Assembly: GCA_016844925.1 (NCBI GenBank)
Contig: JAERTI010000036.1
Location: 11,053 to 75,052, forward strand
Length of the DNA: 64,000 nucleotides
Origin: Candidatus Uhrbacteria bacterium
GTDB lineage: Bacteria > Patescibacteriota > Patescibacteriia > UBA9934 > GWF2-40-263
Reading direction: 5' to 3'
The notes under the pieces were generated by a model. It was given only the letters and a program-made list of their open reading frames with translations, was not told the origin of the DNA and did no database searches. The position numbers and the translations under genes were made by a program. This document shows, piece by piece, positions 1 to 27,117 of this stretch. How positions within the stretch are numbered: position 1 is the first letter of the stretch; each line of letters opens with the position of its first letter.

Positions 1-2588
1 CATCAATGGTAACCGTTGCGTTTTCTGCACCGGACCCACTGACACTAATTGTATTGTTCCCTGCGTCAGCAATTGTAGCCACATAATCACCAGTAGTATC
101 AGTACCCAACGTGACCGCGTCTGCAGAAATCGACGCGACTCCAGCGCTGGAAACATCCACGTCACCACTAAGATCAACGGGGTTGTAGCTCGTTCCATCA
201 GCCACGAGGATGAAACCAGATGTGTTGGTATTCATCATCAGATCATCACCAGCAATCTTCAGATCCCCAGAAGTCTCAAGGTTTCCAGTGGTGCCCATGT
301 CCGTAAGTGTAAGAAGGACATTTGTTCCATCACTGAAGGTCAGGACCTCTGTGTTGTTGATGGCAATATTTGGAGTCGTGGCATCGAACGTAATGTCAGC
401 GCCGATCGATGGAACACCGTTGATGTCGACCGTGGAGTCGAAACGTGTTGCGCCATCAACCTCTAGGGCACCCTCGACGAAAAGAGTGTCATCTGCGAGT
501 GCTGTCAGACTATCTGGTGTTGAGCCAGAGCCAATTCGTGCGCCTGAGACAACGGTCAGATCTGATTCTACGTTTGCGTTTGCCGTAAATGTCGTGAGTC
601 CGTCGAACGTAAAGGATCCATCGTCCGATGCCGTGAATCGATCCGCTCCATTGTCCTGAATCACGAAATCTCCCGTTGAAGCAAGGTTGAAAATGATTTT
701 TCCTGTTCCATTGTTTGTGAAAAGAAGCTGGTCATCAGAATCCATGGTAATGGATGTAGACGCATCGAGTCCGAGTGTGTCACTTAAGACAGCAAAGTCG
801 AGACAGTCGTTACAGTTCACATCTACCACATCAAGTGTTACTGGAGCACCCTCAGAACCAGATCCAACCACAGTCACTGTACCGTTCCCCGCGTCAGCGA
901 CCGTGGCAACGTAATTACCCGTTGTGTCTGTACCTAGCGCAACGGCATTAGATGCAATCGTAGCCACTCCAGCGCTAGAGACATCGACGTCACCACTAAG
1001 ATCTACCGGGTTGTAATTCGTTCCATCGGCCACAAGGATGAAGCCTGAGGTGTTGGTACCCATGGTGAGGTCGTCACCTGAAATCGTCAGGTCACCTGAA
1101 AGCGTGAGGTTCCCGGTTGTACCCGCATCAGCCAACGTGAACAAGGTGTTCGTGCCGTCGGTAATGGTGAGAGACTCACCATTATTAATCGCAACATTTG
1201 GTGTTGTGGCATCGAATGTGATGTCAGCACCAATCGATGGGACACCGTTGATGTCGACCGTGGAATCGAAACGTGTCGCACCATCAATCTCTAAGGCACC
1301 CTCGACGAAGAATGAATCATCCGCTAGGGCTGTAAGACTATCTGGTGTTGAACCTGTTCCAATACGCGCGCCTGATGTGACAATCAGATCCGCTCCAATA
1401 GTTGCATCGTTGTCTGTTGAAATCGTTCCGATTCCAGACAAGTCACCTGTGGCGGAGATGTCCCAGTCGCTCGTGTTGATCGCAATGGAGTCGCCCCCAT
1501 CACCAATGGTTGTGTTTTGTGCAAACGTCAAATCGCCACCGGCAATAGACAGAGCCAAATCTGTCGAACCGGTCGTGGTTATAACGCCTGAATCAAACGT
1601 GGTATCGGTTCCCACTCCAAATCCACCATCACTAAACACTTTCCCCTCTACACCAATGGATCCTGCGACAAATAGATCGTCACCCCCGAGAGAGAAAGAT
1701 GTGTGCGAAAGTGTTTCCGTGGAACTTGTTGAAGCTCCTATGACAAGGTCATTATCAATAAACCCATCACCCATAACCTCGAGCTCGTCGACAATCTGCA
1801 AATCCCCAACTCCTCCAGAGGCGTAAGTGAATGAAGTATTTGCTCCAATAACAACAGCGCTATCATCCTCATAGATATGAGGTGGCACCGAAGTAGTCTC
1901 CCACACAGAGGTAACGTCTGAAGTGAACGCAATGGTTCCTGAACTATCCTTAAAGGTATAGACGTTGTCACCTGTTGGATCAGTGAACGCGAATGTTGAC
2001 TCAAAATCATCTGCTGTTGCCCCCTCGAAGACAAATGGAGATGCGCCTGAGAGCGTCGCGCCAGTGAAGTCGAAGACTCCCGTACCAGTATCACCAGTCG
2101 CCGCTAAGAATCCCGTTGAATCGATTCCATCGAGACGCTGAGCATTGATGGCGTATGGTGCTGCCGTAAGCTGCTTACGTGGTGAAAGTGTCTCGCCGGC
2201 AATATCGACCTCAAGATAGATATTTGTATTGTCACCAAAGACCGAGTCGGCAATGGCAGCGTACGAGTTGCTCGTGTCGCCAAGGTTCTCTGTGAAAAGT
2301 CCCGATGTAAGCGTTACGGAGCGACCTGTTGTGGAAGCTGGTGTGTTGCTATCACAGTCCGCACTTGAGTTTGACCACAGACACGTTCCCGATGTCGATG
2401 CGTCGTACAAGAAGAACTTCATTGTCAGACTCGAATCGCTGGCAGGAACGCCATTATTATCAAGAACCCGCCCTTGATAGGTAACGATGTTTGGCGGCGC
2501 AGCAGATTGCACAATGCCAAATACTGCCATCAGTGAGAGGATGACGAGTATTCCTGTGACAAATTGTGAACTGTGTTTGAGTAACATA
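1..2588 (-). CDS. Large repetitive secreted surface protein (partial; start codon at 2588, continues beyond window start). Has an N-terminal signal peptide (MLLKHSSQFVTGILVILSLMAVFGIVQSA) and long Gly/Thr/Asp/Ser-rich beta-repeats, with an internal ~830-bp diverged tandem duplication
   Basis: Manual reverse-strand translation gives an uninterrupted ORF from the ATG at 2586-2588 to position 1. The + strand ORFs 210..659, 687..914 and 1038..1826 are antisense artefacts of it. AGGAGG lies just upstream. The ORF track does not list it because it runs off the window edge. Confidence 0.7.
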
Positions 2589-2593
2589 GCCTC

Positions 2594-5500
2594 CTATGAA
2601 GTTGGTGCTGGTGGAATATTTGTCAGATCAATATCTGGCTCAAGCCCAACCTCCTGAGAGAAGTCGATGGGCTCGGTGAGTTGTGAGTAGTCGATGGGAC
2701 GAATTTCCATCGGCTTGAATCCTTCTTTTTGGAACGTAGCGAAGTATTTGTTTGGTCCGAGCATGAACGCATAGCGCCCCTTGCTATCAGTAATTTGTGT
2801 CTCGAGTACCTTGTTGTATTTCGGCTCGAAGATACGCGCGACCACACGCGAGAGCGGACGACCTGTGTAGGAGTCGTACACCACACCCCAGCTAATAGGT
2901 TTTCGAGGTCGAGCCAGACGCTTGGCCAAGAAGAATACTCCTAGCTGAATGCCGATCATGCCGAGCGAGAATGGTGTCGGTCGAATGGCACCAAACGCTC
3001 CGGCTGCAAGAACACCTCCGAAGGCCAACACATGCTGAGCCGTGCGCAGCCACTTGCGTCGTATAGCTGTTGTAGACGCTTGCGCCACATCCTGCTGCAC
3101 AGGATCAAGTGGAATGTTGGCTGAGATGACCGCACTAGCGTCCGTCACCTCAATAGGCTCTGAGTGGTAGACATCTAAGTACTGTCCATCCACTTTCTCC
3201 CCTGCTAGATACTGTGATGGGAATTGATATCCCGATTTTGTGACTTGAATGCGATACCTTCCTGTATCAACCAAGAAGAAGTATCGCCCCCCCTTGTCGG
3301 TAACCCGACTCTTGACGAGACGACCAGGTAACCCGGCCGCCTCGTCTTGTTGTGTGACTTGAAAGAGACGTACCACCGCAAGATCCACTGGGGTCTTGGA
3401 GATAGCGTTATAGACGACTCCGTAACTCTTCCTGCGTCTGCGCCAGAAAAAGAGAATTGGCGCTGTGAAAATGTATTGCAGGAATGGAAGGAAATCGAAC
3501 GCGACAGAAAGTACGACCACACTCGCCCCCGCCGTAACAGCAAGTGTGGGAACAGATACTTCTGCGGCCTCTTCTACACCGGGGAGCTCTCGAATGGTTT
3601 CGAGGCCCTCTTGTACTGCCTGGATTGGTTCAAGATCGAGCACGGTCTCGATCACACTAAGAGCAGCTGCCGTGTCATCCACTTCCTCAGCTTCAGGTTC
3701 TTCGTCTTCAGCTTCGGCTTCAATGATTGGCTCCTCGTCCTCTTCCTGCTCGTACGCTGCAAGAACAATGCGAGGATTCACAATCGCATTTGCGACCACA
3801 AGCTGACCCGTGCTTGTAGTCTCAAAGCCTTCTGCTTCGACTTCGACAAGATAGGTGCCGTTTGGCACATACCAAGCGAATGACCCGTCTGAGGAAACGG
3901 TTGTTGGGTTGAACTGGTTATATGGGGACCCATCCCACACCACCTGCTCACCATCAACGATTTCAAAGAGCGTAACGGTTGCGTTTGATACCGTTGTTTC
4001 TTCACCATCGATGACCTGGAGTGCGTAGCCCTGAGAGACAACGCGCAGGTATGAAGAAACAAATTCAGATGAACCATCGTCGTATTCGACTTCTATGATC
4101 ACCTGTTGAATGCCTTTAGCACTCGGTACGGCAACATCCGCGTTGTAAAGAACGCCTGTCTCGTCTAGAGACAGAAGGAATAGATCGCTGCCTATGGACA
4201 GCTGAACGCTGCTAACATCGTCAGCAACTTCTGACACGGGAATCTGCACACTCAACGTGCTTGTGGGAAGCACCTCAACCACACCGGAGCTGGTGGTCTC
4301 GAGCGTAAGAGATCTCTCCGCGACAAGATAACTGATGTCACTATCGGTTAGTTCACCTTCCTCCGCACCCAAGGAGGTAGGTTCACTCACGCTAGGACAA
4401 TCGATTGGACATGAGGCTGATGATTCAGACTCAGAACACACACCGTCTCCACAGGAAACCGCCAGACCTGAAGAGTCGTCTGTCTCTGAGATGTCATCAT
4501 CTCCTGTCACATCACCGGATCCACCTGATTCAGAATCTTCTTCGGACCCCTCCGTAGAATCTTCTTCACCTTCTTCGGTGGCCGGCTCTTCCTCTGAAGG
4601 AACTTCCTCCTCAGAGGGCACCTCTTCTACTGGAGCACTTGGTAACCCAGATCCAAGCGCACCAGAAGCAAACTGCCCTGCTTCATCGTAGGAAAAAACT
4701 CCAAGGTAATAAGTAAGATCAGCTGTTAAACCAGACAACGTCCCTTCTTCAGTAAGATCGTCGAGGCCTGTCGTGCAATCTTCATCTGTTGGACCGTCTG
4801 GATAGTCATCTTCACAAACCAACACGAGAACTCCATCCAAATCTTCATCCGTTGGATTTGTCCAAGACAATGAAAGGGACTCAACGCCGGACTCTACCAG
4901 CAAGTCTGAAACATTTGCCGGTGGCAAATCTTCCTCTGTCGTGAAGGTGTTATCTGCAGAAAACGCTTGATTCGAGAATTTGTCTGTCGAAACAGCTTGA
5001 AAATGATATTCCGTCTCATCATCAAGTCCCGTCAACAAAACAGAGTGTGATGTGACATATTCGCCGTCATATCCAGTAGACTCATAGGTTTCCGTAAGCC
5101 CATAAGAGACCACACTGTTGGCATCTTCATTGGTCGTCCAAGTGATTCGCGCCGAATCATACGTGATATCAATCACTTCAATATCTGAAATAACAGGCGC
5201 TGTTTGATCCAACGTTGTGAACACGAGCGTGTCTGAAATTCCGACATTAGATGCACTGTCAGTTGAATTGGCGTTGAAGTAATAGGTTTCCCCCTCACTC
5301 AACCCAGTCAACGTTAGACTGTGGGATGTCACGAACTCACTGCTGTAGAAGTTATCTAGATCGACATACTCATCTAAACCAATATTCACCCTTGAATCTG
5401 ACGATTCATCGGTTGTCCAACTCACCACAGCCGAAGTTGTGCTCACGGACGAAACCTTGAGTCCAGAGAGTACTGGCGCTGTGGAATCAGGACTTCCGCC

Positions 5501-6097
5501 ACCACCCCCAGTCTCTGGAGGTTCAGGGACTGTTGCCGAAACAGGAATGCTTCCATCCCCATTAATTGGTAAGGCAATGGAACCACGGTCACCAAACGTT
5601 CCAGCAATGGAGATAAAATGCGTGCCACTTGTTACCGGATTAGTAACTTGATTTGCACCCGTTCCGCTTTCTGTGGCATTCGTCCCCACCTCAACGGTAA
5701 CTTGACTTGCCGCCGCAACGGCCCCACCGTCGCCGGCACAGATAGTAATTGTCACTACATCTGAAGCGATTTCAACGGAAGCTTGCTCTGTTCCAGAGCA
5801 GTCTGCAGCCGTAGTCAGATCGACTCCGTCATCAGCCACATCTACATCATCTTCAATGATCGATGATGTATCGAAGGCTGAAGCAAATGTAATCGTTACG
5901 TTTTCACCTTCTGCTATACCTGAAGGAGTTGTAAAGATCAGCTTATGATCCGCAGGAAGGAACGCCTGGAGCGTGGAAGGATAATCATTCCCCGCTGTAA
6001 GCGTCGCTGCTGACACCTGCGAAGCACCCACAATAATCGCCGTTGCAAATACCGCGACTAATAGGATGTTTCGAGTTGTATTGATGAGCGTTCGCAC
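2594..6097 (-). CDS. 1167-aa secreted surface protein. It has a signal peptide, fibronectin-III-like repeats (TAPV.S...VSW.T.E...Y.F), an acidic Ser/Glu-rich linker, and two C-terminal hydrophobic anchors. Each anchor is followed by an Arg/Lys tract and a carboxypeptidase-regulatory/Cna-B-like beta-sandwich domain
   Basis: ORF track protein. Signal peptide MRTLINTTRNILLVAVFATAIIVGASQVSAA; TM segments at ..AGASVVVLSVAFDFLPFLQYIFTAPILFFWRRRRK and ..VLAFGGVLAAGAFGAIRPTPFSLGMIGIQLGVFFLAKRLARPRKP. It is the same operon as the flanking genes, with gaps of only 3-6 bp. Confidence 0.8.
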   Translation of the reverse strand: MRTLINTTRNILLVAVFATAIIVGASQVSAATLTAGNDYPSTLQAFLPADHKLIFTTPSGIAEGENVTITFASAFDTSSIIEDDVDVADDGVDLTTAADCSGTEQASVEIASDVVTITICAGDGGAVAAASQVTVEVGTNATESGTGANQVTNPVTSGTHFISIAGTFGDRGSIALPINGDGSIPVSATVPEPPETGGGGGSPDSTAPVLSGLKVSSVSTTSAVVSWTTDESSDSRVNIGLDEYVDLDNFYSSEFVTSHSLTLTGLSEGETYYFNANSTDSASNVGISDTLVFTTLDQTAPVISDIEVIDITYDSARITWTTNEDANSVVSYGLTETYESTGYDGEYVTSHSVLLTGLDDETEYHFQAVSTDKFSNQAFSADNTFTTEEDLPPANVSDLLVESGVESLSLSWTNPTDEDLDGVLVLVCEDDYPDGPTDEDCTTGLDDLTEEGTLSGLTADLTYYLGVFSYDEAGQFASGALGSGLPSAPVEEVPSEEEVPSEEEPATEEGEEDSTEGSEEDSESGGSGDVTGDDDISETDDSSGLAVSCGDGVCSESESSASCPIDCPSVSEPTSLGAEEGELTDSDISYLVAERSLTLETTSSGVVEVLPTSTLSVQIPVSEVADDVSSVQLSIGSDLFLLSLDETGVLYNADVAVPSAKGIQQVIIEVEYDDGSSEFVSSYLRVVSQGYALQVIDGEETTVSNATVTLFEIVDGEQVVWDGSPYNQFNPTTVSSDGSFAWYVPNGTYLVEVEAEGFETTSTGQLVVANAIVNPRIVLAAYEQEEDEEPIIEAEAEDEEPEAEEVDDTAAALSVIETVLDLEPIQAVQEGLETIRELPGVEEAAEVSVPTLAVTAGASVVVLSVAFDFLPFLQYIFTAPILFFWRRRRKSYGVVYNAISKTPVDLAVVRLFQVTQQDEAAGLPGRLVKSRVTDKGGRYFFLVDTGRYRIQVTKSGYQFPSQYLAGEKVDGQYLDVYHSEPIEVTDASAVISANIPLDPVQQDVAQASTTAIRRKWLRTAQHVLAFGGVLAAGAFGAIRPTPFSLGMIGIQLGVFFLAKRLARPRKPISWGVVYDSYTGRPLSRVVARIFEPKYNKVLETQITDSKGRYAFMLGPNKYFATFQKEGFKPMEIRPIDYSQLTEPIDFSQEVGLEPDIDLTNIPPAPTS

Positions 6098-6103
6098 ACA
6101 TGT

Positions 6104-7042
6104 TTAGGTTTTGTGTGTCCTCCTCGATGCACGCGCACCGAATTTGTAAACGATGAGTAATAGAGCTGCTGCTGCAAAAACCGTGAGGATCAACTGCCAT
6201 GGAATCAGCCAGAATGTGAACTCTGCGTTCATCATGTCATCACCATCGCCATAGCTGACGTTTAGCAGAGCCGTAACAGGACCAATGCTGAAATGCTGTG
6301 CCTGATAATTCACCAACTCATACCAACTCGCATGCTCGCCGGATGAAATACTTCCTCGGTACGTTCGTGTGGATCCAGGAAGGACACGTCCACCCGACTG
6401 ATTTGCATCAACGCGTGAAATTTCTCTTCCTAAGAAATCCGTTACAACAACCTCGCCAGTTGGGAGAATATGTACATTCCCCTGATTCTGCACACGATAT
6501 TGAAAATCAATATCTAACGTCGAGAGCAATGCAGCAGGGGTCTCACTTGTGAAATCAAGCAAACTGGCCTTCTCAGTCGTCTCACCAGCAACTGTTAATA
6601 GCACTAAGACGGCTGTTTTTGCCTCGATAATGGCACCATTGCTCGCAACCACATCCTCTGGAGCTGGCGACACTGTAATCGCGGCATAGTAACCACCGGA
6701 GGCAACATCCTGGGGGACACGGACTTCAAACGGAATATCTGCAGCACTTTCTGCTGGCACAACAACGACCTCTGAATCGAATGTAAACCATTCAAGATAG
6801 TCGGCAGTTGATTCACCTGTTGGAATGAACTGTGGCTCTCCTCCTTCATCACGAGCCGTAAACTCGATTACGTCCAAATAGTACGTTTGATCGATTCCAC
6901 TCGTGTTGATGACGGAAATCGCATCCTCAGTAAGGCTTCCTCGCTCTAGAACCATCTCTACTAGCGAAGGGGAGACACTTGCTGCGGATACCATTACTGG
7001 CATCAGAAGCAGGATAAACAACGTGATGACAAGCTGTTTCAT
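6104..7042 (-). CDS. 312-aa cell-surface protein with N-terminal signal peptide and C-terminal TM anchor plus basic tail (reminiscent of DUF916-type surface proteins of Gram-positives)
   Basis: ORF track. Signal peptide MKQLVITLFILLLMPVMVSAAS; C-terminal WQLILTVFAAAALLLIVYKFGARASRRTHKT. Confidence 0.7.
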   Translation of the reverse strand: MKQLVITLFILLLMPVMVSAASVSPSLVEMVLERGSLTEDAISVINTSGIDQTYYLDVIEFTARDEGGEPQFIPTGESTADYLEWFTFDSEVVVVPAESAADIPFEVRVPQDVASGGYYAAITVSPAPEDVVASNGAIIEAKTAVLVLLTVAGETTEKASLLDFTSETPAALLSTLDIDFQYRVQNQGNVHILPTGEVVVTDFLGREISRVDANQSGGRVLPGSTRTYRGSISSGEHASWYELVNYQAQHFSIGPVTALLNVSYGDGDDMMNAEFTFWLIPWQLILTVFAAAALLLIVYKFGARASRRTHKT

Positions 7043-7951: not shown

Positions 7952-8012
7952 AGGCTTACCTCTACAAATAGAGTATATCATGAATACTAAATGTAGTCAA
8001 AGTATTTCTTTG

Positions 8013-8038
8013 CTAAGCTTAGCAAAGAAATGGACCTT
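8013..8038. promoter_or_regulatory. Perfect 26-bp palindrome TTTCTTTGCTAAGC|TTAGCAAAGAAA abutting the -35 box of the surface-protein operon promoter; candidate operator
   Basis: Read directly. A perfect DnaA-box nonamer TTATCCACA also occurs at 8100-8108 in the same intergenic region. Confidence 0.5.
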
Positions 8039-8288
8039 TTTTGATGCAAAAGTAGGAAAAAAATAGAAAAAACTTCTAAAACTCTTTGAAATTGCCGCTT
8101 ATCCACATTTTTCCCTGTTTGTCTACCCCAGTGTTGCCAAATAACTAAAATCCACCAAAAGTTGGTGGATTTTAGTTCGATCTATTTAACCTTATCGCTT
8201 GCATCTCATAACTACTGTGATCTGATCTACTTAACCATGACTTCAGATTTCACAGTATCGTTTCTCGTGAAACACCATCAGAATTTTA

Positions 8289-8364
8289 TGGTGTCCCCGG
8301 AGGGACTCGAACCCCCATGTCATCCTTAGGAGGGATGCGCTCTATCCTGTTGAGCTACGAGGAC
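8289..8364 (-). tRNA. tRNA-Arg (anticodon CCT), CCA encoded
   Basis: Manual cloverleaf fold of the reverse complement: acceptor GTCCTCG/CGGGGAC, anticodon stem CATCC/GGATG with loop CTCCTAA, T-arm GGGGG-TTCGAGT-CCCTC. A hairpin terminator lies downstream at ~8143-8170. Confidence 0.8.
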
Positions 8365-8444
8365 AATTGACATATTTTACTCTGTGAAATAAGAGCTATT
8401 GCGCATGATATAATCCCAGAGCGTCGTTATAATACGCCACTCAA

Positions 8445-9581
8445 TTGGCACAGTCAAAACTTTTTATGTCAACAGAAGCATTTTTAACTTCAGTCATTGT
8501 TGCACTAGTTCTAGGGATCTTGTTCTTAGCTACTAGAAAACCTCGCTCAAAAAGTCCAGATACTGATTCAAACCTGCTCGCACTCATTAATGATTTAAGA
8601 AAAGAGATACAATCTACAACCAACTCTCAAAGAAAAGAGGTTGAAGGAAAGCTTGATCAAATGCATGATCGGCTCCTCCAGAATATGCAAGAGTCTTCTT
8701 CAACTCTTCAGAAGCATTTTAGGCACACATCAGTCATCATAAAGGATGTGACTGAACGTCTCACGCAACTTGATGACACGAATAAACAAGTCCTTGGTTT
8801 TTCTGAACAACTTCAAAGCTTGGAAAACATCTTAAAAAATCCAAAACAACGAGGAATCCTAGGTGAATATTGGCTTGAATCCCTTTTAAATCAAGTTCTT
8901 CCTCCTGGGCAATATAAAATGCAACACGATCTAGGTATCAACGAAAAGACCGGGCAAAAACTAATTCCAGATGCAGTTATTTTTGTTAAAGATTTTATCA
9001 TTCCAATTGATTCAAAGTTTTCTCTTGAAAACTACAACCGTATTTCACAAGAAACAGATCAAGCAAGACGCTCACTACTTGAAAAAGAGTTTAAAGCTGA
9101 CGTTAAACTCAGGATCGATGAAACGTCTAAATATATCCAGCCAGAGAAAGGAACAACGAACTTTGCATTCATGTTCGTGCCCGCAGAAGGTGTCTACCAC
9201 AACCTGATCACTCAAAACGTTGGGGCTGTAAAAGTAAACACCCGAAATCTTATTGAGTATGCTTTTGAAAAAGGTGTGATGATCGTTTCTCCAACATCAT
9301 TTTTTGCCTACCTACAAACGGTGATCTTGGGATTAAAAGCTCTTCAAATCGAAGAATCTGTTAAAGACATTCAGATGCAGTCAGAAAAACTCATGCGTCA
9401 CATGAAGGCCTATGAAGATCATCACAACAGAGTGGGCAAGCACCTTGAGACAACGGTCCGGGCGTACACAGCATCATCTAAAGAATTGAAAAAGGTCGAT
9501 AAGGACATCTATAAAATCACTGACGGCATCGCCGGTAAAGAGCTTGAGCCAATAGAGCTTGAAGTGCCCCAAAGGGACTAA
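8445..9581 (+). CDS. rmuC: DNA recombination protein RmuC
   Basis: N-terminal TM, coiled coil, and a conserved RmuC C-terminal region (..GEYWLESLLNQVLPPGQYKMQ.., FMFVPAEGVYHNL..). Confidence 0.7.
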   Translation: MAQSKLFMSTEAFLTSVIVALVLGILFLATRKPRSKSPDTDSNLLALINDLRKEIQSTTNSQRKEVEGKLDQMHDRLLQNMQESSSTLQKHFRHTSVIIKDVTERLTQLDDTNKQVLGFSEQLQSLENILKNPKQRGILGEYWLESLLNQVLPPGQYKMQHDLGINEKTGQKLIPDAVIFVKDFIIPIDSKFSLENYNRISQETDQARRSLLEKEFKADVKLRIDETSKYIQPEKGTTNFAFMFVPAEGVYHNLITQNVGAVKVNTRNLIEYAFEKGVMIVSPTSFFAYLQTVILGLKALQIEESVKDIQMQSEKLMRHMKAYEDHHNRVGKHLETTVRAYTASSKELKKVDKDIYKITDGIAGKELEPIELEVPQRD

Positions 9582-9730
9582 TCTAAGGACCTGATTGTCT
9601 ATCCAAAGTATTTTACGACACAAATATCAATGAGCTGTGTATATAGATTGACACATCACCATTATCAGCTATACTACCGACGTCTCAGTTAGCGCCATTG
9701 CTAACAAAAATACGCTCAACATATAGAACT

Positions 9731-10000
9731 ATGCCAAACTTAAAGAATGCAAAGAAAGCTATTCGCCAAAGCGACAAACGCGCACAGCGCAATAAAATCG
9801 CCAAAGCGGAGATCAAGTCCCTTCGCGTAAAACTGCGTAAGGCACTTACAGCAAGTAACCTTGACGAAGCGGCAACTGTTGCGCAGCTCGTCGGGAAAAA
9901 ACTCGACAAAGCCGTCAAGAAGAACATCTTCAAGAAGAACACTGTGGCTCGATACAAGTCACGCATGATGAAGAAGATCAACGCGCTGAAAAATGCGTAG
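9731..10000 (+). CDS. rpsT: 30S ribosomal protein S20
   Basis: MPNLKNAKKAIRQSDKRAQRNKIAKAEIKSLRVKLRKA.. is a typical S20. The TTGACA-N16-TATACT promoter sits at ~9650-9680 and a hairpin terminator at 10003-10032. Confidence 0.85.
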   Translation: MPNLKNAKKAIRQSDKRAQRNKIAKAEIKSLRVKLRKALTASNLDEAATVAQLVGKKLDKAVKKNIFKKNTVARYKSRMMKKINALKNA

Positions 10001-10077: not shown

Positions 10078-11040
10078 TCAGCTCATCAGCTTCATCGCGA
10101 CAAGATCTACTGCCATATCAGCTTGAACTTGCCCAGTCTTTAATTGACGATCAAATACAAACAGCTGTTCATGGACATGCCTCAAATGCTCGAGTGAAAA
10201 GCCGCGCGCTTGAGTAAGGGCCTTACTTGCAACAAACGGATGTAGCCCCATGATACTCGCGAGTTCCTGTTTATCAGCACTGGGGTTCTCATCAAGAATC
10301 GCACGAGCGCCAAGAAGTATCCGAACCTGACGCCCCAACATGGTAAGTAGGTAATGGTCATTTGCTCCGCTCCATCTCTCTTCCTGCAATAGCCGAATTG
10401 CTTGTTTTGAGTTTCGGCGCGAAATAGCATCTATCAGGTCGAAAATCTTCCCCTCGAAACTAGCATGAACCAATTTATCAACCATCCCAACTTCAATCTC
10501 TTGAGTGTCGGCAAATGCTACAAGTTTTCCAATCTCATGATCCATTTGCCACAGATCAGGGCCAACTCTCTCAATTAACGCCCTCAGTGCCCCCGAGTTT
10601 ATGCTCCCTGAACGTGCACGAACCCTCTCTGAAACCCATGCTGTGAGCTGTGCGCCTTTCAATTGAGGAAACGCGTAATGATGAACCTCCGCAGAGTCCT
10701 GAAGAGCCTTGAACAGAGGCTTCTTCTCAAGCTTTGCAGGCTCCTCCGTTTCCCAAAAAATAACAATTGAACTCTCTGGAGCATCTTTCAGGCCCTCAAC
10801 CCACACATTCATATCGGCCTTTTTTGTTGAGCCGATCAAGTCCCGAACCACAACCATTCGTTTCTGTCCCATAAATGGCATCGAGCGCGCAGATTGGATC
10901 ACCTGACCAGGGTCTAGCTTGCCACTGTACTCTGCCGTGTTCAGCCCGGTAGGATCAAACTTCTCGCCAAACGCCGCCTTCATAACTTGGACTTTCTCCT
11001 GCACGCGAAAGCTATCGTCTCCGTAAATAAATATCAGCAT
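10078..11040 (-). CDS. holA: DNA polymerase III delta subunit
   Basis: 320-aa protein with the HolA-like fold signature (MLIFIYGDDSFRVQEKVQ.., C-terminal helical domain). Confidence 0.7.
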   Translation of the reverse strand: MLIFIYGDDSFRVQEKVQVMKAAFGEKFDPTGLNTAEYSGKLDPGQVIQSARSMPFMGQKRMVVVRDLIGSTKKADMNVWVEGLKDAPESSIVIFWETEEPAKLEKKPLFKALQDSAEVHHYAFPQLKGAQLTAWVSERVRARSGSINSGALRALIERVGPDLWQMDHEIGKLVAFADTQEIEVGMVDKLVHASFEGKIFDLIDAISRRNSKQAIRLLQEERWSGANDHYLLTMLGRQVRILLGARAILDENPSADKQELASIMGLHPFVASKALTQARGFSLEHLRHVHEQLFVFDRQLKTGQVQADMAVDLVAMKLMS

Positions 11041-11101
11041 AACGCGATCATCTTACCCCAGCTTAAGTTCCCCAACAAAAAAAGGGGCCTCGTCTAGGTC
11101 C

Positions 11102-11749
11102 CTAGTGACTCGCAGACGTCCGTGGACGCTGCATGACATCACGAATCTTGCCACGCATCAGGCGCCTCATCGTTGCATCGATCTCTTCCCATCGCGAAAG
11201 CGGATGTGTTTCCCGCAGACCAGGAAGGGTCACAACGATTTTGTTGTCCTTGACCTCCACCGTCGCGTTGGGAGCCCCCTCAATACGAAAGCTGTGCGTT
11301 CCAGGATCCTGTTGCGCTGACGCAAGCACAATGATCCCCTTGGATGATTCGTGACAGATGATGATCTCGTCTTCGTCCGGAATTCCCCAGATCAGCTCCG
11401 GACGCTCGTGCGTCATTGCGATCACCCGATGAGCAATGATCTCGTAGGGAATCCTCGCGGGGTGCCCCAGAGCTACGACCACGTCACTGGCACCACGCGC
11501 TGCCAACTGGCAAATCCGTGACATCGTCCCGACGGACAGTGCCGCCTGGCCAACCTGACGTGCAGGACGATTGAGCCGTCGGACTTCCCACCGAACCTCT
11601 TTCTTGGTCCTGAGCTGCATCGGCACCTGCTCGAACATGCCCCTCATGACCTCAAGGACCATCGGGTGCACGGGCTCTGTGAATGGTTCGTGCAAGGAAA
11701 GTGGGCTCTCACTCGGCCTCCATCCCAGCGTGAAAATCTTGGACGACAT
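11102..11749 (-). CDS. Hypothetical protein (C-terminal half weakly reminiscent of YmdB-type metallophosphoesterase; not confident)
   Basis: ORF track only; no firm motif match. Confidence 0.35.
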   Translation of the reverse strand: MSSKIFTLGWRPSESPLSLHEPFTEPVHPMVLEVMRGMFEQVPMQLRTKKEVRWEVRRLNRPARQVGQAALSVGTMSRICQLAARGASDVVVALGHPARIPYEIIAHRVIAMTHERPELIWGIPDEDEIIICHESSKGIIVLASAQQDPGTHSFRIEGAPNATVEVKDNKIVVTLPGLRETHPLSRWEEIDATMRRLMRGKIRDVMQRPRTSASH

Positions 11750-17945: not shown

Positions 17946-18099
17946 CACGCACACCCCACCCCCGATACGCATCGGGGATTTTTTTTGTGCAAAATAAATA
18001 CCCGCACTTGCTTCCGAAGAAGTGTAGTGCGGGGGAGTGGAGCCACGCGCTGGCTACACACTCAGTGCCCGACGTGCATCAGGCGGGTGTCCTGTCGGA

Positions 18100-21972: not shown

Positions 21973-22296
21973 ATGGATCGGTTACAAGAGCTGGATGACC
22001 AGCTCTACGCACTTCACCATGACCATGTGCTTCACGGTGCCACGCTCGTCGAACACCACGAAGACGGCACGCAGTCGCGTGGACGTATCAGCAGCACAGG
22101 ACACGGATACGGTGAACTCGGACTATGGTGGCACAACGAAGATGATCGTCATCGACAGGCCTGCCTGAGTCACAGCAGCTGGAACTTCTCCAGAACGGGG
22201 AACGAGATTCGTTTCAGTAGGACTGGCCCTGACCGGAGAAGCTTCGACATCCCCCCCGGGGACGTCAACCTCTACGTCATCACCATCGCGGACTAG
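21973..22296 (+). CDS. GC-rich small hypothetical protein (107 aa, His-rich)
   Basis: TTGACA-N17-TACGTT immediately after the upstream terminator; AGGAGA RBS; terminator ending TTTTTTCTTTT at ~22300-22330. Confidence 0.45.
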   Translation: MDRLQELDDQLYALHHDHVLHGATLVEHHEDGTQSRGRISSTGHGYGELGLWWHNEDDRHRQACLSHSSWNFSRTGNEIRFSRTGPDRRSFDIPPGDVNLYVITIAD

Positions 22297-22391: not shown

Positions 22392-23306
22392 ATGCGTCAC
22401 GTGTACCTGGCTGCTCTTGGCACGCTCTGCCTGCTCCTCACCAGCTTCCACATCCCGAAGGACTCCACCCTGGAGCTCGGCGTGGAACACGCGAGCACCA
22501 GCGACAACGCGACGAGCCGCACCACGCGGCAGCAAGACGAGATGCTGCAGACCCTCGTCTCCCTGGCTACATACAAGCAGCGCTTGGAAGAAGCCTGCGA
22601 GGCGTTCCTGATCTCAGACGCCACGTCCGAAGATCTCTCCGCGCTCCTCACGGTCGCCGGCTCTCACCGCGACCCCGCCGCCGTCTTCGTACGTTGCGGC
22701 CTGGAAGAAGATGATGTCGAGGATCTCTTGATGAGCATGCTCAGTGACCGCATCGAGGAAGGGGACCGAGAGGCCTCCCGCATCGCCTTCGCCCTGGCTG
22801 GCACACAGTGTTCCCAGACGCCGCTACAGATCGACCGCGAGTGCGAAGACGCCGCCGATGAACTGGAGTGGCCCGTGACTCGCTGGCGCTCTTGCATCAA
22901 GGACGGCTACAGCAGCTACAAGCAGTGCAGCCTCGACGTCCTGACCGAGCACGGCGTGAGTGCCACCAAGGTGGAGGACGCTTACTTTGGCAAGTACGCC
23001 AAACAGACCAGCGACCTGGTGCACGCAGCCAAGGACGGAAGCGCCGACCCTCACGAGGTCGTCGACGAACTCATGCGCCGCGCCGAAGATCGCGTCCTGA
23101 TCGAGACCATGGGCACGGGTGCCATGGGCGCCTCCAGCTACATGATCTTCGCCCTCTCCCAGAACCTGAAGTTCCAGGGCGAGACGGAACTCCAGGAAGA
23201 GATGCAGCCCCTGCTCGACTTCTGGATCCACCGCTGCGACCTGGACCAAACCGGAGCCCTAGACGACCACGAAGTAGACGACATCCAACTCGCCTACAAC
23301 GACTGA
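22392..23306 (+). CDS. GC-rich secreted hypothetical protein (304 aa; signal peptide, acidic, Cys-containing)
   Basis: TAAGGAGG-N8-ATG; terminator GACCCCCTGAGGGTC+TTTTTCTTTTTT at 23306-23335. Confidence 0.5.
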   Translation: MRHVYLAALGTLCLLLTSFHIPKDSTLELGVEHASTSDNATSRTTRQQDEMLQTLVSLATYKQRLEEACEAFLISDATSEDLSALLTVAGSHRDPAAVFVRCGLEEDDVEDLLMSMLSDRIEEGDREASRIAFALAGTQCSQTPLQIDRECEDAADELEWPVTRWRSCIKDGYSSYKQCSLDVLTEHGVSATKVEDAYFGKYAKQTSDLVHAAKDGSADPHEVVDELMRRAEDRVLIETMGTGAMGASSYMIFALSQNLKFQGETELQEEMQPLLDFWIHRCDLDQTGALDDHEVDDIQLAYND

Positions 23307-23385
23307 CCCCCCTGAGGGTCTTTTTCTTTTTTGTTTAATCCCTGCCAACCAAACAAAAAGCCCTCGCTTTCGCGAAGGCTTTCTG

Positions 23386-23402
23386 TGGGGCGGCTAACGG
23401 GA
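23386..23402. repeat. 17-bp exact direct repeat of the 3' end of tRNA-His (TGGGGCGGCTAACGGGA = complement of ..CCCGTTAGCCGCCCCA), 151 bp downstream of the gene; att-like scar
   Basis: Identical string at 23554-23570 inside the tRNA gene. Confidence 0.7.
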
Positions 23403-23553
23403 GTCTCACGTCGCTTCGCTCCTCCAGGGGCTTGTGCCCCTAGGACGGCCTCCGGCCTGTACCCCCAGCATGTAAGGGGGTATCCCCCTTACCATCCCCC
23501 GTTCGATTCCCATTAGCCAACAGAAAACCCCCGATAAATTCGGGGGTTTTCTA

Positions 23554-23630
23554 TGGGGCGGCTAACGGGAATCGAACCCGTAATACCAGTACCACAAACT
23601 GGTGTGATAACCGTTTCACCATAGCCGCCA
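23554..23630 (-). tRNA. tRNA-His (anticodon GTG) with encoded G-1 and CCA
   Basis: Manual fold: G-1, acceptor GCGGCTA/TAGCCGC, C73, anticodon stem CCAGT/ACTGG with loop TTGTGGT. A hairpin terminator CCCCCGAATTTATCGGGGG lies at ~23527-23552. Confidence 0.8.
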
Positions 23631-23668
23631 TGGCTTGTTGAGGTTCAACGGAGCCAAGAATAGCAGAA

Positions 23669-24388
23669 CTATTCGATGGAATCAAGCATTGAATCAAGCT
23701 CGAATGTATCAGTGATCGCCTTTGCCTCAAGGAGCGCCGCCTCTGCCTCTTCTGAGTAACCGACGGTAGCCATGAGGATCCATGCATGTTCGCCATCATC
23801 TATATACTGAGACCTCACAGCTGGAGCTTCTCCGTCTCCGGAACATGGCTTTTTACACCCCCACTCGAGAACATAGCCATCCCGTCCCTTAAACTCACCC
23901 GGGGTCAAACTCTGATAAATGTCACTTGCTGTGATCCCAGCATTTGGAGAATCTGGATTCGCCTGAATATTCTCCACTGCTTCTTCAAGTGTCTCCTTGG
24001 ACGTAGAAAACTCTGTCACCACTTCATCGAAACTTCGCTCACCTTTTTCAATATCGAATATCCTCAAGAACACAGGGCTCTCGGTAAGGGGCACTTCTGG
24101 ATCTGCGTTCACGACGGTACTGCGGATAAGCATGCCATTTGCTCCACGTGGGTACACAATCGATTCTAGAATGTGCCAATCAACAGGCACGACCATGGAA
24201 TACCCATCCCCGCGCACGAGCGTCTCATCTTCTGCGTCGCGCTCGAGCTCTGATTCATAAACAAGACCCTGTGACTCTTGTTGATCTGTTGAGTCTTCCG
24301 TGTCTCCCCCCGTCCAAATGACAACTCCCACAACAAGCAGAACAAGAATGGCGGCACTTAGCAGGTATGATCGATTATCAAATTTCAT
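23669..24388 (-). CDS. Membrane-anchored acidic extracytoplasmic protein (239 aa), tandem paralog of the next gene
   Basis: N-terminal TM; shared motifs with 24395..25213 (VVP.DW, C..(P/A)C, W(I/V).(I/L)(M/T).(V/T)GY, A.A..DTFEL). Confidence 0.6.
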   Translation of the reverse strand: MKFDNRSYLLSAAILVLLVVGVVIWTGGDTEDSTDQQESQGLVYESELERDAEDETLVRGDGYSMVVPVDWHILESIVYPRGANGMLIRSTVVNADPEVPLTESPVFLRIFDIEKGERSFDEVVTEFSTSKETLEEAVENIQANPDSPNAGITASDIYQSLTPGEFKGRDGYVLEWGCKKPCSGDGEAPAVRSQYIDDGEHAWILMATVGYSEEAEAALLEAKAITDTFELDSMLDSIE

Positions 24389-24394
24389 AGAACG

Positions 24395-25213
24395 TTAATT
24401 GAGTTCAAAGCTATCCATAACCTCTTGCGCTTGCGCGAGGAGCTCATCTGCTTGATCGGAATACGCCGTGCGACCAGTAATCACCCACACTCTGTCACCT
24501 GCATCAATGTAATACGCAATCATCGCTGGTGGGGACCCTTCGATGTAACACGCCTGCTCACACACAAAGGTATTCATGTAAGCCTCTCGTCCGTCAATCT
24601 GAACTGACTCGAGCTCCACCGTAATGTGGGCATCCATGTACGCATCAATCTCTGACTGATCAGCCTCACTCAATTCGCCCCCTCCACCGAATAAGTAAAC
24701 CTGCACACCAAACCGAGCTCCATCTTCATCCATGGCCCATCTATCTACAACAGAATCCAGTGTCCACTCATCTCCTTTCTCATAATCCTCCACATGCACA
24801 GAAACTTCTGTTGGGTGCCCATAGGCCTCCTGTGCATCGAGGTTCTTGATCCACCCATGTGAGTAGCGACCACGACTTGAACGAGTGCTGCGCTCGCTTG
24901 CGCTCAGAACAAGCCAATCCTCTGGAACCAGGAGTGAAAATCCTTCACCAAGAACCACCGTCGGATCTGCGGCATCACGTTCAAGAGACAGCTGAGCTGG
25001 CTCTTCTTCTGTTTCCACCTCTTCTTCAGCTTCTTCTTCTGAAAGTACCTCCTCAATAAGATCCTCAATCTCTTGCTCAAGAAGCTCAATCTCCTCAAGA
25101 GCTAACTCTGGTGTTTCCAGAGGCGTTGGCTCAGCTTCCGGGGCCTTCACAACAGAAAGTGCCCAGACACCAATAGCCAGCAAGACGAAAAATAAACTGA
25201 TATTTCGAAACAT
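24395..25213 (-). CDS. Membrane-anchored acidic extracytoplasmic protein (272 aa) with Glu-rich coiled region, tandem paralog of 23669..24388
   Basis: ORF track plus shared C-terminal motifs. Confidence 0.6.
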   Translation of the reverse strand: MFRNISLFFVLLAIGVWALSVVKAPEAEPTPLETPELALEEIELLEQEIEDLIEEVLSEEEAEEEVETEEEPAQLSLERDAADPTVVLGEGFSLLVPEDWLVLSASERSTRSSRGRYSHGWIKNLDAQEAYGHPTEVSVHVEDYEKGDEWTLDSVVDRWAMDEDGARFGVQVYLFGGGGELSEADQSEIDAYMDAHITVELESVQIDGREAYMNTFVCEQACYIEGSPPAMIAYYIDAGDRVWVITGRTAYSDQADELLAQAQEVMDSFELN

Positions 25214-26169: not shown

Positions 26170-27117
26170 TCAGGACGTTTTATTTTCTTCCTTAGGTTTT
26201 TTCCGAGCCCGATCATGAAACTTCTTATGCACCTCTTTCATCTTTTTGTTCGTGATGTGGGTATACACCTGGGTCGTCGTAATCGATGCGTGCCCAAGCA
26301 GGGACTGCACAGAACGAATATCCGCCCCTCCCATGAGCAGGTCCGTGGCAAACGTGTGCCGGAGCGTGTGTGGTGTAATGCGTTTGGTAATGCCCGCCTG
26401 CTTTGCATAGCGCTCCACGAGCCGCTGTACTGATCGCGACGTAAGCCCGCCTGTCTTTCCACGACCAGCTCGCGCCTTGTCGTGACAGATGAATAGGTAC
26501 TCAGACGTATCTCTTCGCTTCGCTAGATACTCTTTCAGTGCTTCTTTGGCTGTACTGGAGAGATACACGGCTCGCAACTTACCCCCCTTACCCCTCACCG
26601 TGAACTCATCTCGCTTCAAATTAATCTGTTCGATCTTCAGGTTCGAGAGCTCACTCACGCGCAAGCCCGTAGAGAAGAGCAGCTCGAGAATGGCTCGATC
26701 ACGCAACGCCACAAGATCTTTCCCAGCCGGCGCCGCTAACAATCGATCCAACTCCTCGACCTCCAAGAACGACACCTCTCGCTGCTCCTGCTTTGCGAGC
26801 TCGATCTTCTCCGGAGCCAGGGAAGTGATGTCTTCGCGCGCCAGGTATTTTAGAAATGATCGTAGAGCGATCAGGTGATAATTCTGCGTCGACTTCTTGA
26901 GCGTCTTTCCATCGCGACCAGCTACTTTCCGGTTCAGCCAAAGACGATACTTATGAATCATCTCGCTGGTAATCTCCTTGGGTTCTGGCCCCTTAGCCCA
27001 CTGAGAAAACCGTCGCAAATAAAAATGATAGTTGCGAATCGTCTTCTCCGTCCTCCCTCGCTCAACCTCTAGATATTCGAGGAACTTCGTGATCAATTTG
27101 TCGATCGTCGTGGGCAT
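26170..27117 (-). CDS. Xer-type tyrosine site-specific recombinase (XerC/XerD-like)
   Basis: C-terminal catalytic region ..HTLRHTFATDLLMGGADIRSVQSLLGHASITTTQVYTHI..; N-terminal core-binding domain. Start trimmed to MPTTIDKLI. Confidence 0.8.
   Translation of the reverse strand: MPTTIDKLITKFLEYLEVERGRTEKTIRNYHFYLRRFSQWAKGPEPKEITSEMIHKYRLWLNRKVAGRDGKTLKKSTQNYHLIALRSFLKYLAREDITSLAPEKIELAKQEQREVSFLEVEELDRLLAAPAGKDLVALRDRAILELLFSTGLRVSELSNLKIEQINLKRDEFTVRGKGGKLRAVYLSSTAKEALKEYLAKRRDTSEYLFICHDKARAGRGKTGGLTSRSVQRLVERYAKQAGITKRITPHTLRHTFATDLLMGGADIRSVQSLLGHASITTTQVYTHITNKKMKEVHKKFHDRARKKPKEENKTS

Follow-up and report, generated by a model that had tools for sequence, protein, structure and literature searches.

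A structured module closed by copies of the tRNA-His 3' end in Candidatus Uhrbacteria, and its counterparts in other Patescibacteria

A stretch of 64,000 nt from a Candidatus Uhrbacteria contig (JAERTI010000036.1, positions 11,053 to 75,052; hereafter the window) carries, behind its tRNA-His gene, a module of ~133 nt (23386-23518, minus strand). The module lies between two terminator-like hairpins, T1 and T2, and is bounded by an antisense and a sense copy of the 3' part of the tRNA. The sense copy was originally predicted to be part of an att-like scar, left by site-specific integration into the tRNA 3' end. Our analysis favours a different explanation: an insertion or duplication at the tRNA 3' end has probably, though far from certainly, become a selected structured module, most likely an RNA-level element of the tRNA trailer. 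Sequence comparisons place the same architecture behind tRNA-His in at least 10 other Patescibacteria, and in one case behind tRNA-Arg, where the tail is of the Arg type. On the minus strand the order is tRNA-His, T1, antisense copy, 98-nt core, sense copy and T2, as follows.

23554-23628, minus strand: tRNA-His(GTG) with encoded G-1 and CCA, called by ARAGORN and the Rfam tRNA model (63.8 bits)
23522-23552, minus strand: T1, a hairpin of A-tract, GC-stem and T-tract right after the tRNA CCA, seen in the sequence
23501-23518, minus strand: antisense copy of the tRNA-His T-loop, T-stem 3' strand and acceptor 3' strand, reading GGCTAATGGGAATCGAAC; 5' strand of the closing helix
23403-23500, minus strand: GC-rich core (66% GC) with three hairpins, from the predicted folds
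23386-23405, minus strand: direct copy of the last 17 nt (exact) or 20 nt (19/20) of tRNA-His, CCA included, from the repeat search
23355-23384, minus strand: T2, AAAAA-GCCCTCGC-TTTC-GCGAAGGC-TTTCT on the plus strand, directly after the direct copy; overlooked in the original prediction
23305-23330, plus strand: intrinsic terminator of the convergent gene for a protein of 304 amino acids (aa), called by the terminator scan; outer edge of the locus

Copies of the tRNA-His 3' end and the predicted fold

The last 17-20 nt of tRNA-His are the template of the repeats. The window contains just two exact copies of the last 17 nt (plus-strand form TGGGGCGGCTAACGGGA), one at 23386-23402 and one at 23554-23570; they have the same orientation with 151 nt between them, and both predicted coordinates were reproduced. 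Dinucleotide shuffles gave a mean of 0.14 matches with up to 3 mismatches allowed, and by our arithmetic a second exact 17-mer would arise by chance in 64 kb with a probability of ~1e-5. The repeat is longer than previously given: it holds at 19 of 20 positions over GA[T/C]TCCCGTTAGCCGCCCCA and, in its longest form, at 26 of 29 (90%) between 23377-23405 and 23545-23573, where both copies run beyond the CCA into the start of a hairpin. The original prediction had overlooked a third, inverted copy, GTTCGATTCCCATTAGCC (23501-23518; 18 nt, 94% complementary to 23560-23577). The 3' ends of the other two tRNAs of the window have no further copies within the 64 kb. Other parts of the original description hold: the DNA between the copies is GC-rich (66% in the core compared to 54% in the window), it ends in the A-tract/GC-stem/T-tract hairpin T1, and within 23403-23553 no open reading frame (ORF) matches an integrase.

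In the minimum-free-energy and centroid folds the antisense and sense copies form a 12-bp helix around three GC hairpins, with 23501-23518 paired to 23387-23398. The antisense copy (GGCUAAUGGGAAUCGAAC, 23518-23501 in minus-strand reading) provides the 5' strand. The sense copy (UCCCGUUAGCCGCCCCA, 23402-23386) provides the 3' strand and a 5-nt CCCCA tail. The acceptor/T-stem stack of a tRNA is also 12 bp. A conserved, tRNA-like closing helix has the direct copy as its 3' strand, and the description of that copy as a plain att repeat was not sustained. Within the core, the predicted hairpins are GUAAGGGGG-AUA-CCCCCUUAC, GGCC-GGA-GGCC and GGGGC-ACAA-GCCCC, with a further possible helix between GGAUGG and CCGUCC. 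The z-scores of the module's fold are -3.2 (window) and -4.2 (the sister lineage described below). An alternative pairing joins the antisense copy to the tRNA's own 3' part and lengthens T1 to a hairpin of ~34 bp; the fold of 23495-23580 reaches -57.9 kcal/mol (z = -7.4). By eye, T2 is similar to the hairpin behind the tail copy of a related locus, L021.

The consensus terminator scan called only the terminator at 23305-23330 and neither T1 nor T2, because their T-runs lie partly inside the stems. A search of 23250-23700 against Rfam 15 returned tRNAs only, with no match to the module at the gathering threshold or at E <= 10, and the elements of the relatives had no Rfam 15 match either. The Rfam models of the tRNA clan, tmRNA and Y-RNA did not detect the module. 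ARAGORN found no tmRNA in the window and called only the three true tRNAs, leaving the module uncalled. Resemblances to the tRNA-like domain of tmRNA, to twister, to the signal recognition particle RNA and to K-turn-like motifs were seen by eye only and had no support from models. Two reading frames were rejected as coding: an ORF of 61 aa (plus strand, 23331-23516), whose frame would be shifted by a 1-nt indel in the sister lineage, and a minus-strand frame of ~24 codons, which runs through the T2 hairpin.

Comparison with the sister lineage and other Patescibacteria

The 239-aa protein encoded next to the locus has a single homologue cluster, at 84% identity, which led to a sister lineage represented by contigs L006-L013 (8 places; ENA, JGI and Logan samples). 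The window lineage comprises 2 contigs, and the window equals Logan contig L001. The sister contigs are syntenic with the window at 88-93% DNA identity, and the tRNA-His is identical (100%) in the window, the sister lineage and the related loci L014/L015. The module is present in 8/8 sister and 2/2 window-lineage contigs at the same place and with the same length, and no presence/absence polymorphism was seen in these 10 contigs of two lineages. The module is ancestral to both lineages. A decaying insertion scar, as first proposed, does not agree with an ancestral segment that shows no length change in the sister. Of the two findings named with the original prediction as refuting it, this is one; the other is the place of the repeat in a conserved tRNA-like structure, described above.

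Over 135 nt, the modules of window and sister are 97% identical and are separated by 4 substitutions and 1 indel. Identity is 77.1% at third codon positions of 8 flanking genes, 88% in the Xer-DsbA spacer and 91% in the GNAT-Xer spacer, and it is 85% and 87.5% in the flanking hairpins T1 and T2. If the module changed at the rate of the Xer-DsbA spacer, 5 or fewer changes would arise with a probability of 7e-4; the value is 1e-3 for the pooled spacers and 5e-10 for third positions, but rises to 0.02 for the smaller GNAT-Xer spacer. With 97% identity against 77% at third positions and ~88% in other spacers, the module appears to evolve much more slowly than neutral sites, which indicates that it is under constraint. 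Three of the four substitutions fall in predicted helices and all three preserve pairing: the closing helix changes from U.G to C-G, the first hairpin from G-C to G.U and the possible GGAUGG/CC[G/A]UCC helix from U.G to U-A. The fourth lies at the discriminator position of the tail (GCCCCA to GCUCCA).

A separate difference between the two lineages concerns T1, whose loop (window 23535-23539; L007 10850-10858) is inverted, reading GAATTTATC in one and GATAAATTC in the other on the tRNA strand, while the stem is the same. This is the signature of a template switch.

The 17-mer occurs mostly in tRNA-His genes of Patescibacteria, and our comparison set consisted of 47 true tRNA-His loci with the 17-mer, plus L015. 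The full-length tRNA-His has no exact match among species-representative genomes, where the lineage is not represented, and two exact matches in JGI metagenomes. The order of tRNA-His, hairpin, structured insert, tail copy and hairpin was found in L015, L101, L061, L103, L048, L021, L026 and L087, and in these relatives the second tail copy lies 157-199 nt downstream of tRNA-His. Further cases are L020, which is cut by the end of the locus, L117 and L089, which have a degenerate tail, and L067, a short form. A hairpin, the antisense T-loop motif GGAAT[CT]GAAC, a core and a copy of the cognate tail follow one another in the window, L015, L101 (twice), L061, L103 and L048.

The cores of these elements fall into types that cannot be aligned with one another. 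Type A (L015, L101, L061 and L103) reads GCGGGAAU[C/U]GAAC-GGCCGG-A-GCN-hairpin-GNGA-GGC-CCGGNC-...-CGAUUCC followed by the tail. Type B (L021, L026 and L020) starts with the full antisense acceptor, GGGGCGGCUAAC; in L021 and L026 long hairpins stand at matching positions in unrelated sequences. The window element has the 5' motif GGGAAUCGAACGG in common with type A and, by eye, a GAGCGAAGCGACG-like motif in common with type B. Among the five type-A elements, a small set from which the tested structure was itself derived, 89% of cells are paired compared to 77% in shuffles and 26-45% in slid controls, and 15 of 32 pairs show compensatory changes compared to 6.8 in shuffles, with none of 500 shuffles reaching 15. 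The covariation supports the hairpins of one core type, type A, and not those of the window. Against a type-A covariance model the window scored 31.2 bits (E = 5e-7) and the sister 29.0, compared to ~17-21 for bare tRNA-His ends.

L101 has a second type-A element (2270-2421, minus strand; 84.9 bits), which lies between tRNA-Arg(TCT) and tRNA-His. This Arg-linked element ends in GATTCCATCCGGGGGTACCA, a copy of a tRNA-Arg tail. The copy matches the Arg acceptor that is still present in the tRNA-Arg of L015 (..CUCCGGGGGUACCA), and in L101's own tRNA-Arg a base pair has since changed (..CUCCGAGGGUACCA, with the matching change in the 5' strand). Since the L101 tail equals the older Arg tail and the tRNA has changed since, the copy was retained over a long time. 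The core thus continues, through the T-loop bases GAUUCC that the tRNAs share, into the tail of the tRNA that precedes it. The antisense motif also tracks the T-loop: GGAAUCGAAC accompanies a UUCGAUU tRNA (window, L015 and L101) and GGAAUUGAAC a UUCAAUU tRNA (L061, L103, L048 and L117), with L087 as the one exception. This pattern, drawn from lineages that are not independent, is suggestive of an antisense motif that follows the local T-loop variant.

A similar arrangement was seen in L028 (~3050-3240), from a metagenome-assembled genome labelled Opitutia, where two tRNA-His-tail-like copies, 157 nt apart, enclose a structured insert; ARAGORN and Rfam found no tRNA at that site.

Origin, candidate role and competing explanations

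The module is patchily distributed. A plain terminator follows tRNA-His in L122 (Xer protein 81% identical), L123/L124 (78%), L039 (77%) and L038 (74%), and the module is also absent in L014, L027, L078, L081, L088 and others. The original suggestion to look for an empty site at related tRNA-His loci thus yielded none in the 10 contigs of the two close lineages, but did yield plain-terminator loci in more distant relatives. In module-free relatives (L014, L039, L122, L123 and others) the sole terminator can be matched only ambiguously to T1 or to T2; by eye, the sole terminator of L034, L027 and L122 is like T2 of L015 and L087, and that of L051 is like T1 of L101.

One Uhrbacteria locus, L034, has a 3.6-kb island behind tRNA-His (2471-6146) with 56-nt direct repeats on both sides. 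Each repeat consists of the last 20 nt of tRNA-His and its terminator, and the island encodes a TrmB-type regulator and an ATP-binding cassette (ABC) amino-acid transporter (binding protein, permease and ATPase) but no integrase. Because the repeats of the window have att-type geometry and an island occupies the same site in L034, an origin of the module by insertion or duplication at the tRNA 3' end is plausible. To this extent the original att-type footprint stands; its reading as a scar with cargo does not. Repeats of 29-56 nt that include the terminator would fit a Campbell-type insertion of a circle carrying tail and terminator, by site-specific or homologous recombination, and would not fit a staggered-cut target duplication. 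A phage attP as the source was rejected: in viral contigs the 17-mer matched only phage-encoded tRNA-His genes inside tRNA arrays, and the type-A core motif matched only high-GC coding DNA.

We propose that the history began with a Campbell-type insertion or a duplication at the tRNA 3' end, which would account for the att-like geometry and for the terminator within the repeat in some genomes. The module would since have been kept by selection as a structured trailer element. Read-through of T1 would give a trailer RNA whose closing helix would imitate the acceptor/T-stem of a tRNA, and since the 3' terminus of the module is the same as that of the tRNA, the tRNA 3'-end machinery could release the module RNA or define its end. 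More tentatively, the modules may form a class of tRNA-trailer RNAs in Patescibacteria that spreads between His and Arg tRNA genes by capturing the local tail. On that reading the element could conceivably be a miniature mobile RNA gene that depends on a tRNA tail, with the tail doubling as a processing signal.

Several observations weigh against a selected trailer RNA. T1 is itself terminator-like, so read-through has to be assumed, and the promoter scan found no sigma-70-type promoter for the module. Both strands of the module fold about equally well, and the counts of G.U and A.C pairs in type-A helices (10 versus 6) are not decisive for the strand. The window core cannot be aligned with type A or type B cores, its score on the type-A model is modest, and direct evidence of covariation in its own sequence comes from only 4-5 differences. 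Two other spacers near tRNA genes are as conserved as the module (97.5-98.8%). The patchiness, with module-free relatives whose Xer proteins are 77-81% identical, fits a mobile element too. Lastly, the discriminator and CCA of the tail vary (GCUCCA in the sister, GCUCUA in L026 and ACCUCG in L021); because they are not conserved everywhere, a strict need for a tRNA-like CCA end is doubtful.

The neighbouring genes bear on the competing explanations. The genes for the 421-aa and 304-aa proteins, which make up the adjacent GC-rich block, and a thioredoxin-like gene beyond them lie downstream of tRNA-His in the sister lineage as well. The same block genes follow tRNA-His in L021/L121, with proteins 64% and 51% identical and an Xer protein 87% identical; by reported gene order they do so in L122 and L123, where homology was not confirmed. 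In L039 and L038 block homologues of 34-43% identity lie near tRNA-His. Since its genes recur downstream of or near tRNA-His in relatives, the block is a conserved syntenic core, and the suggestion that it was former cargo is contradicted. The recombinase encoded at 26170-27117 was rightly called Xer-like: it scored 241-260 bits on the XerD, XerC and XerA models, its best matches, and 140.7 bits on the integron-integrase model TIGR02249 (cut-off 265). Its homologues are annotated as Candidatus Uhrbacteria or Parcubacteria group, and in at least nine related loci the recombinase gene keeps its synteny with the tRNA-Arg(TCT)/tRNA-His pair, whether the module is present or not.

Tyrosine-recombinase integration into tRNA or tmRNA 3' ends leaves attL and attR, as in decayed cis-mobilizable elements (CIMEs; PMC5704250), and ssrA-targeted islands are found in Dehalococcoides (PMC3146451). 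It is possible, if doubtful, that the module is a miniature non-autonomous element of the CIME kind, inserted as a circle of ~165-190 bp whose attP carries the tRNA 3' end. A tyrosine recombinase would act in trans, possibly the Xer-like enzyme 2.6 kb upstream, and the core would serve the element and not the host. An insert flanked by direct repeats of the target 3' end and patchy among close relatives is what such an element would leave, yet a fixed single copy should decay, and this one is 97% conserved where neutral proxies reach 77-88%. The absence of presence/absence polymorphism in the 10 contigs, the single copy in the window and the lack of anything related in the viral contigs searched also argue against it. 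Different core types at one site (window and L021, despite 87% identical Xer proteins) and the L034 island, with its 56-nt repeats and no integrase of its own, favour the element, as does the same core behind two tRNAs in L101; a His-specific element could not restore tRNA-Arg, however, and tail-specific variants would be required. The recurrent linkage of the Xer-like gene to the tRNA pair points the same way, but the gene is there with or without the module. A neutral scar, in which a decayed island or prophage remnant would lie between attL and attR, is the reading of the original prediction; it is largely refuted and very improbable. Two points are in its favour: the att-like repeat, and a stretch (23403-23502) that weakly resembles, in collinear order, the part of the Xer-like gene encoding the catalytic region. 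Conservation far above neutral, the strong secondary structure that has been kept, the near-equal size of the same architecture (157-199 nt between copies) in many lineages with unrelated cores, and the conserved nature of the adjacent block all speak against such a remnant. The similarity to the recombinase, two short collinear matches (TGDGKGD and TVRGKGGK; AKRRET and AKRRDT), shrinks to an 18-nt local match, and by eye it has no counterpart in related elements; an integrase pseudogene inside the 151 nt was rejected, and the match was deemed chance.

Two further explanations were considered. The locus could be a DNA-level recombination site or landing pad, like attC or dif, that captures cassettes such as VapBC or the L034 island downstream of tRNA-His, which we consider improbable. 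The R'' and R' boxes of integrons have the consensus RYYYAAC/GTTRRRY, and GGCTAA[T/C]...GTTAGCC resembles them with one mismatch each; the Arg-linked element of L101 lacks such boxes, however, and GTTAGCC is simply tRNA-His sequence. As in attC, the sequence diverges under a conserved structure; variable cassettes adjoin and a tyrosine recombinase gene is linked, but that recombinase falls below the cut-off of the integron-integrase model, there is no cassette array, the VapBC indel has no bounding site copies and GC skew places no terminus at the locus. Least probable of all is that the module arose, without a function, when template switching at the terminator hairpin (quasi-palindrome extension) copied the tRNA 3' end antisense and then sense. 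The inverted T1 loop, the antisense copy that directly continues the T1 stem in L026 and L021, and the ~34-bp hairpin that T1 and its flanks form in the window would all fit this. It leaves unexplained the conserved core, the purifying selection and the Arg-linked copy without an antisense acceptor.

A selected trailer module, which we favour, can be set beside several known systems. With attL/attR it shares a same-orientation repeat of the last 17-20 or more nt, an intact RNA gene and, in L034, an island at the same site. It differs from attL/attR scars in having no integrase or remnant, an insert of ~150 nt that is structured and under purifying selection, fixation in two lineages and an extra inverted copy of the target. 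In E. coli, the tyrT operon has rtT RNA (RF00391) and 178-bp repeats, in 3.14 tandem units. There too a structured unit ends in a ~19-nt copy of the tRNA 3' end including CCA, and its release from the trailer by tRNA-processing enzymes has been proposed. Like rtT, the module is a structured unit on the same strand downstream of a tRNA and ends in a copy of the tRNA 3' end with CCA. Unlike rtT, it is a single unit from another phylum with an antisense copy and flanking hairpins, and it has no sequence or model similarity (no Rfam match). We therefore regard rtT RNA as the closest functional analogy, and not as a homologue.

The imperfect inverted repeat, the AAC...GTT boxes, the variable structured centre and the nearby tyrosine recombinase gene recall integron attC sites and ORF-less cassettes, as do the adjoining variable genes and the structure kept while sequence varies. 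In contrast to integrons, the boxes are tRNA-His sequence and are missing from the Arg-linked relative, and there is no IntI-type integrase, attI or array. A histidine-accepting viral example is known among tRNA-like structures (TLS; PMC8127992). As in such structures (tmRNA domain, the bacterial Y-RNA-like YrlA and viral TLS), the helix of the module imitates the acceptor/T-stem, here of tRNA-His, and leads to an NCCA-type 3' end, but there is no mimic of the T-loop or D-loop, ARAGORN and Rfam are negative, and discriminator and CCA vary among relatives. In its length of 100-200 nt, terminal inverted repeats, long hairpin and intergenic position beside terminators the module is like miniature inverted-repeat transposable elements and repetitive extragenic palindrome-like repeats (Correia, ERIC and REPIN). 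Unlike these, it is single copy in 64 kb and tied to a tRNA 3' end with its tail, and the duplication is 17-56 nt, not short.

Both the duplication of tRNA 3' ends and a trailer RNA ending in a tRNA tail were known already. What is new is a Patescibacteria module family closed by an antisense/sense pair of the 3' part of the cognate tRNA. The family occurs behind at least two tRNA species and is catalogued nowhere in Rfam 15, and our literature searches found no description of an equivalent module in Patescibacteria. Duplications of a tRNA 3' end are commonly taken for the scars of islands; at this locus such a footprint marks what appears to be a selected structured element, and island or att predictors would mis-call this and similar Patescibacteria loci. 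Because Patescibacteria genomes are tiny and have little spare DNA, a conserved module of 130-190 nt at tRNA-His and tRNA-Arg is a good candidate non-coding RNA, with candidate roles in tRNA maturation, decay or sensing. The natural series of empty site, small module and 3.6-kb island also offers a setting for the study of DNA capture at tRNA 3' ends in bacteria that have very few recombinases.

Further features of the neighbourhood

In the sister contig L007 a VapBC cassette of ~700 bp (11035-11737), encoding a 127-aa PIN protein and a 79-aa MazE/AbrB-like protein, separates T2 from the 304-aa gene; at this position (23331-23354) the window has only ~21-24 nt. The cassette, the only indel near the locus, is situated beyond the repeat pair, and no copies of the repeat stand at its ends. 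In L039 a PIN-like gene follows directly after the tRNA-His terminator.

The genes for the 239-aa and 272-aa proteins (23669-25213), between tRNA-Arg(TCT) and tRNA-His, are paralogues without a family match, and the 239-aa protein has only two clusters among 5.8 billion proteins. They are the fastest-evolving genes here, with third-position identities to the sister of 0.60-0.63. Since tRNA-Arg and tRNA-His are adjacent in L015, L034 and L101, the gene pair may be an insertion behind tRNA-Arg; no copy of the Arg tail was found. The tRNA-Arg/tRNA-His spacer of two other loci contains another structured repeat (..GAGCAC..CGUAC-loop-GUACG..GAGCG..CUGACAACG..), which is unrelated to the module and is present as two tandem units in L061 (253-545) and as one in L087 (7141-7322, minus strand).

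The GC content of the window is uneven, strongly so for one contig (8000-10000 and 48000-59000), ranging from 0.38 near tRNA-Arg(CCT) to 0.67 at 57-59 kb. The low-GC segment at 8000-10000, beside tRNA-Arg(CCT) (8289-8364), contains no repeat of the 3' end of that tRNA. Two further differences separate the window from the sister lineage. The sister carries an IS1595-family transposase gene (L007 16786-17574) that has no counterpart in the window at ~17960-17988, and the segment 21931-22326 of the window, with a 107-aa ORF (21973-22296), is missing from the sister.

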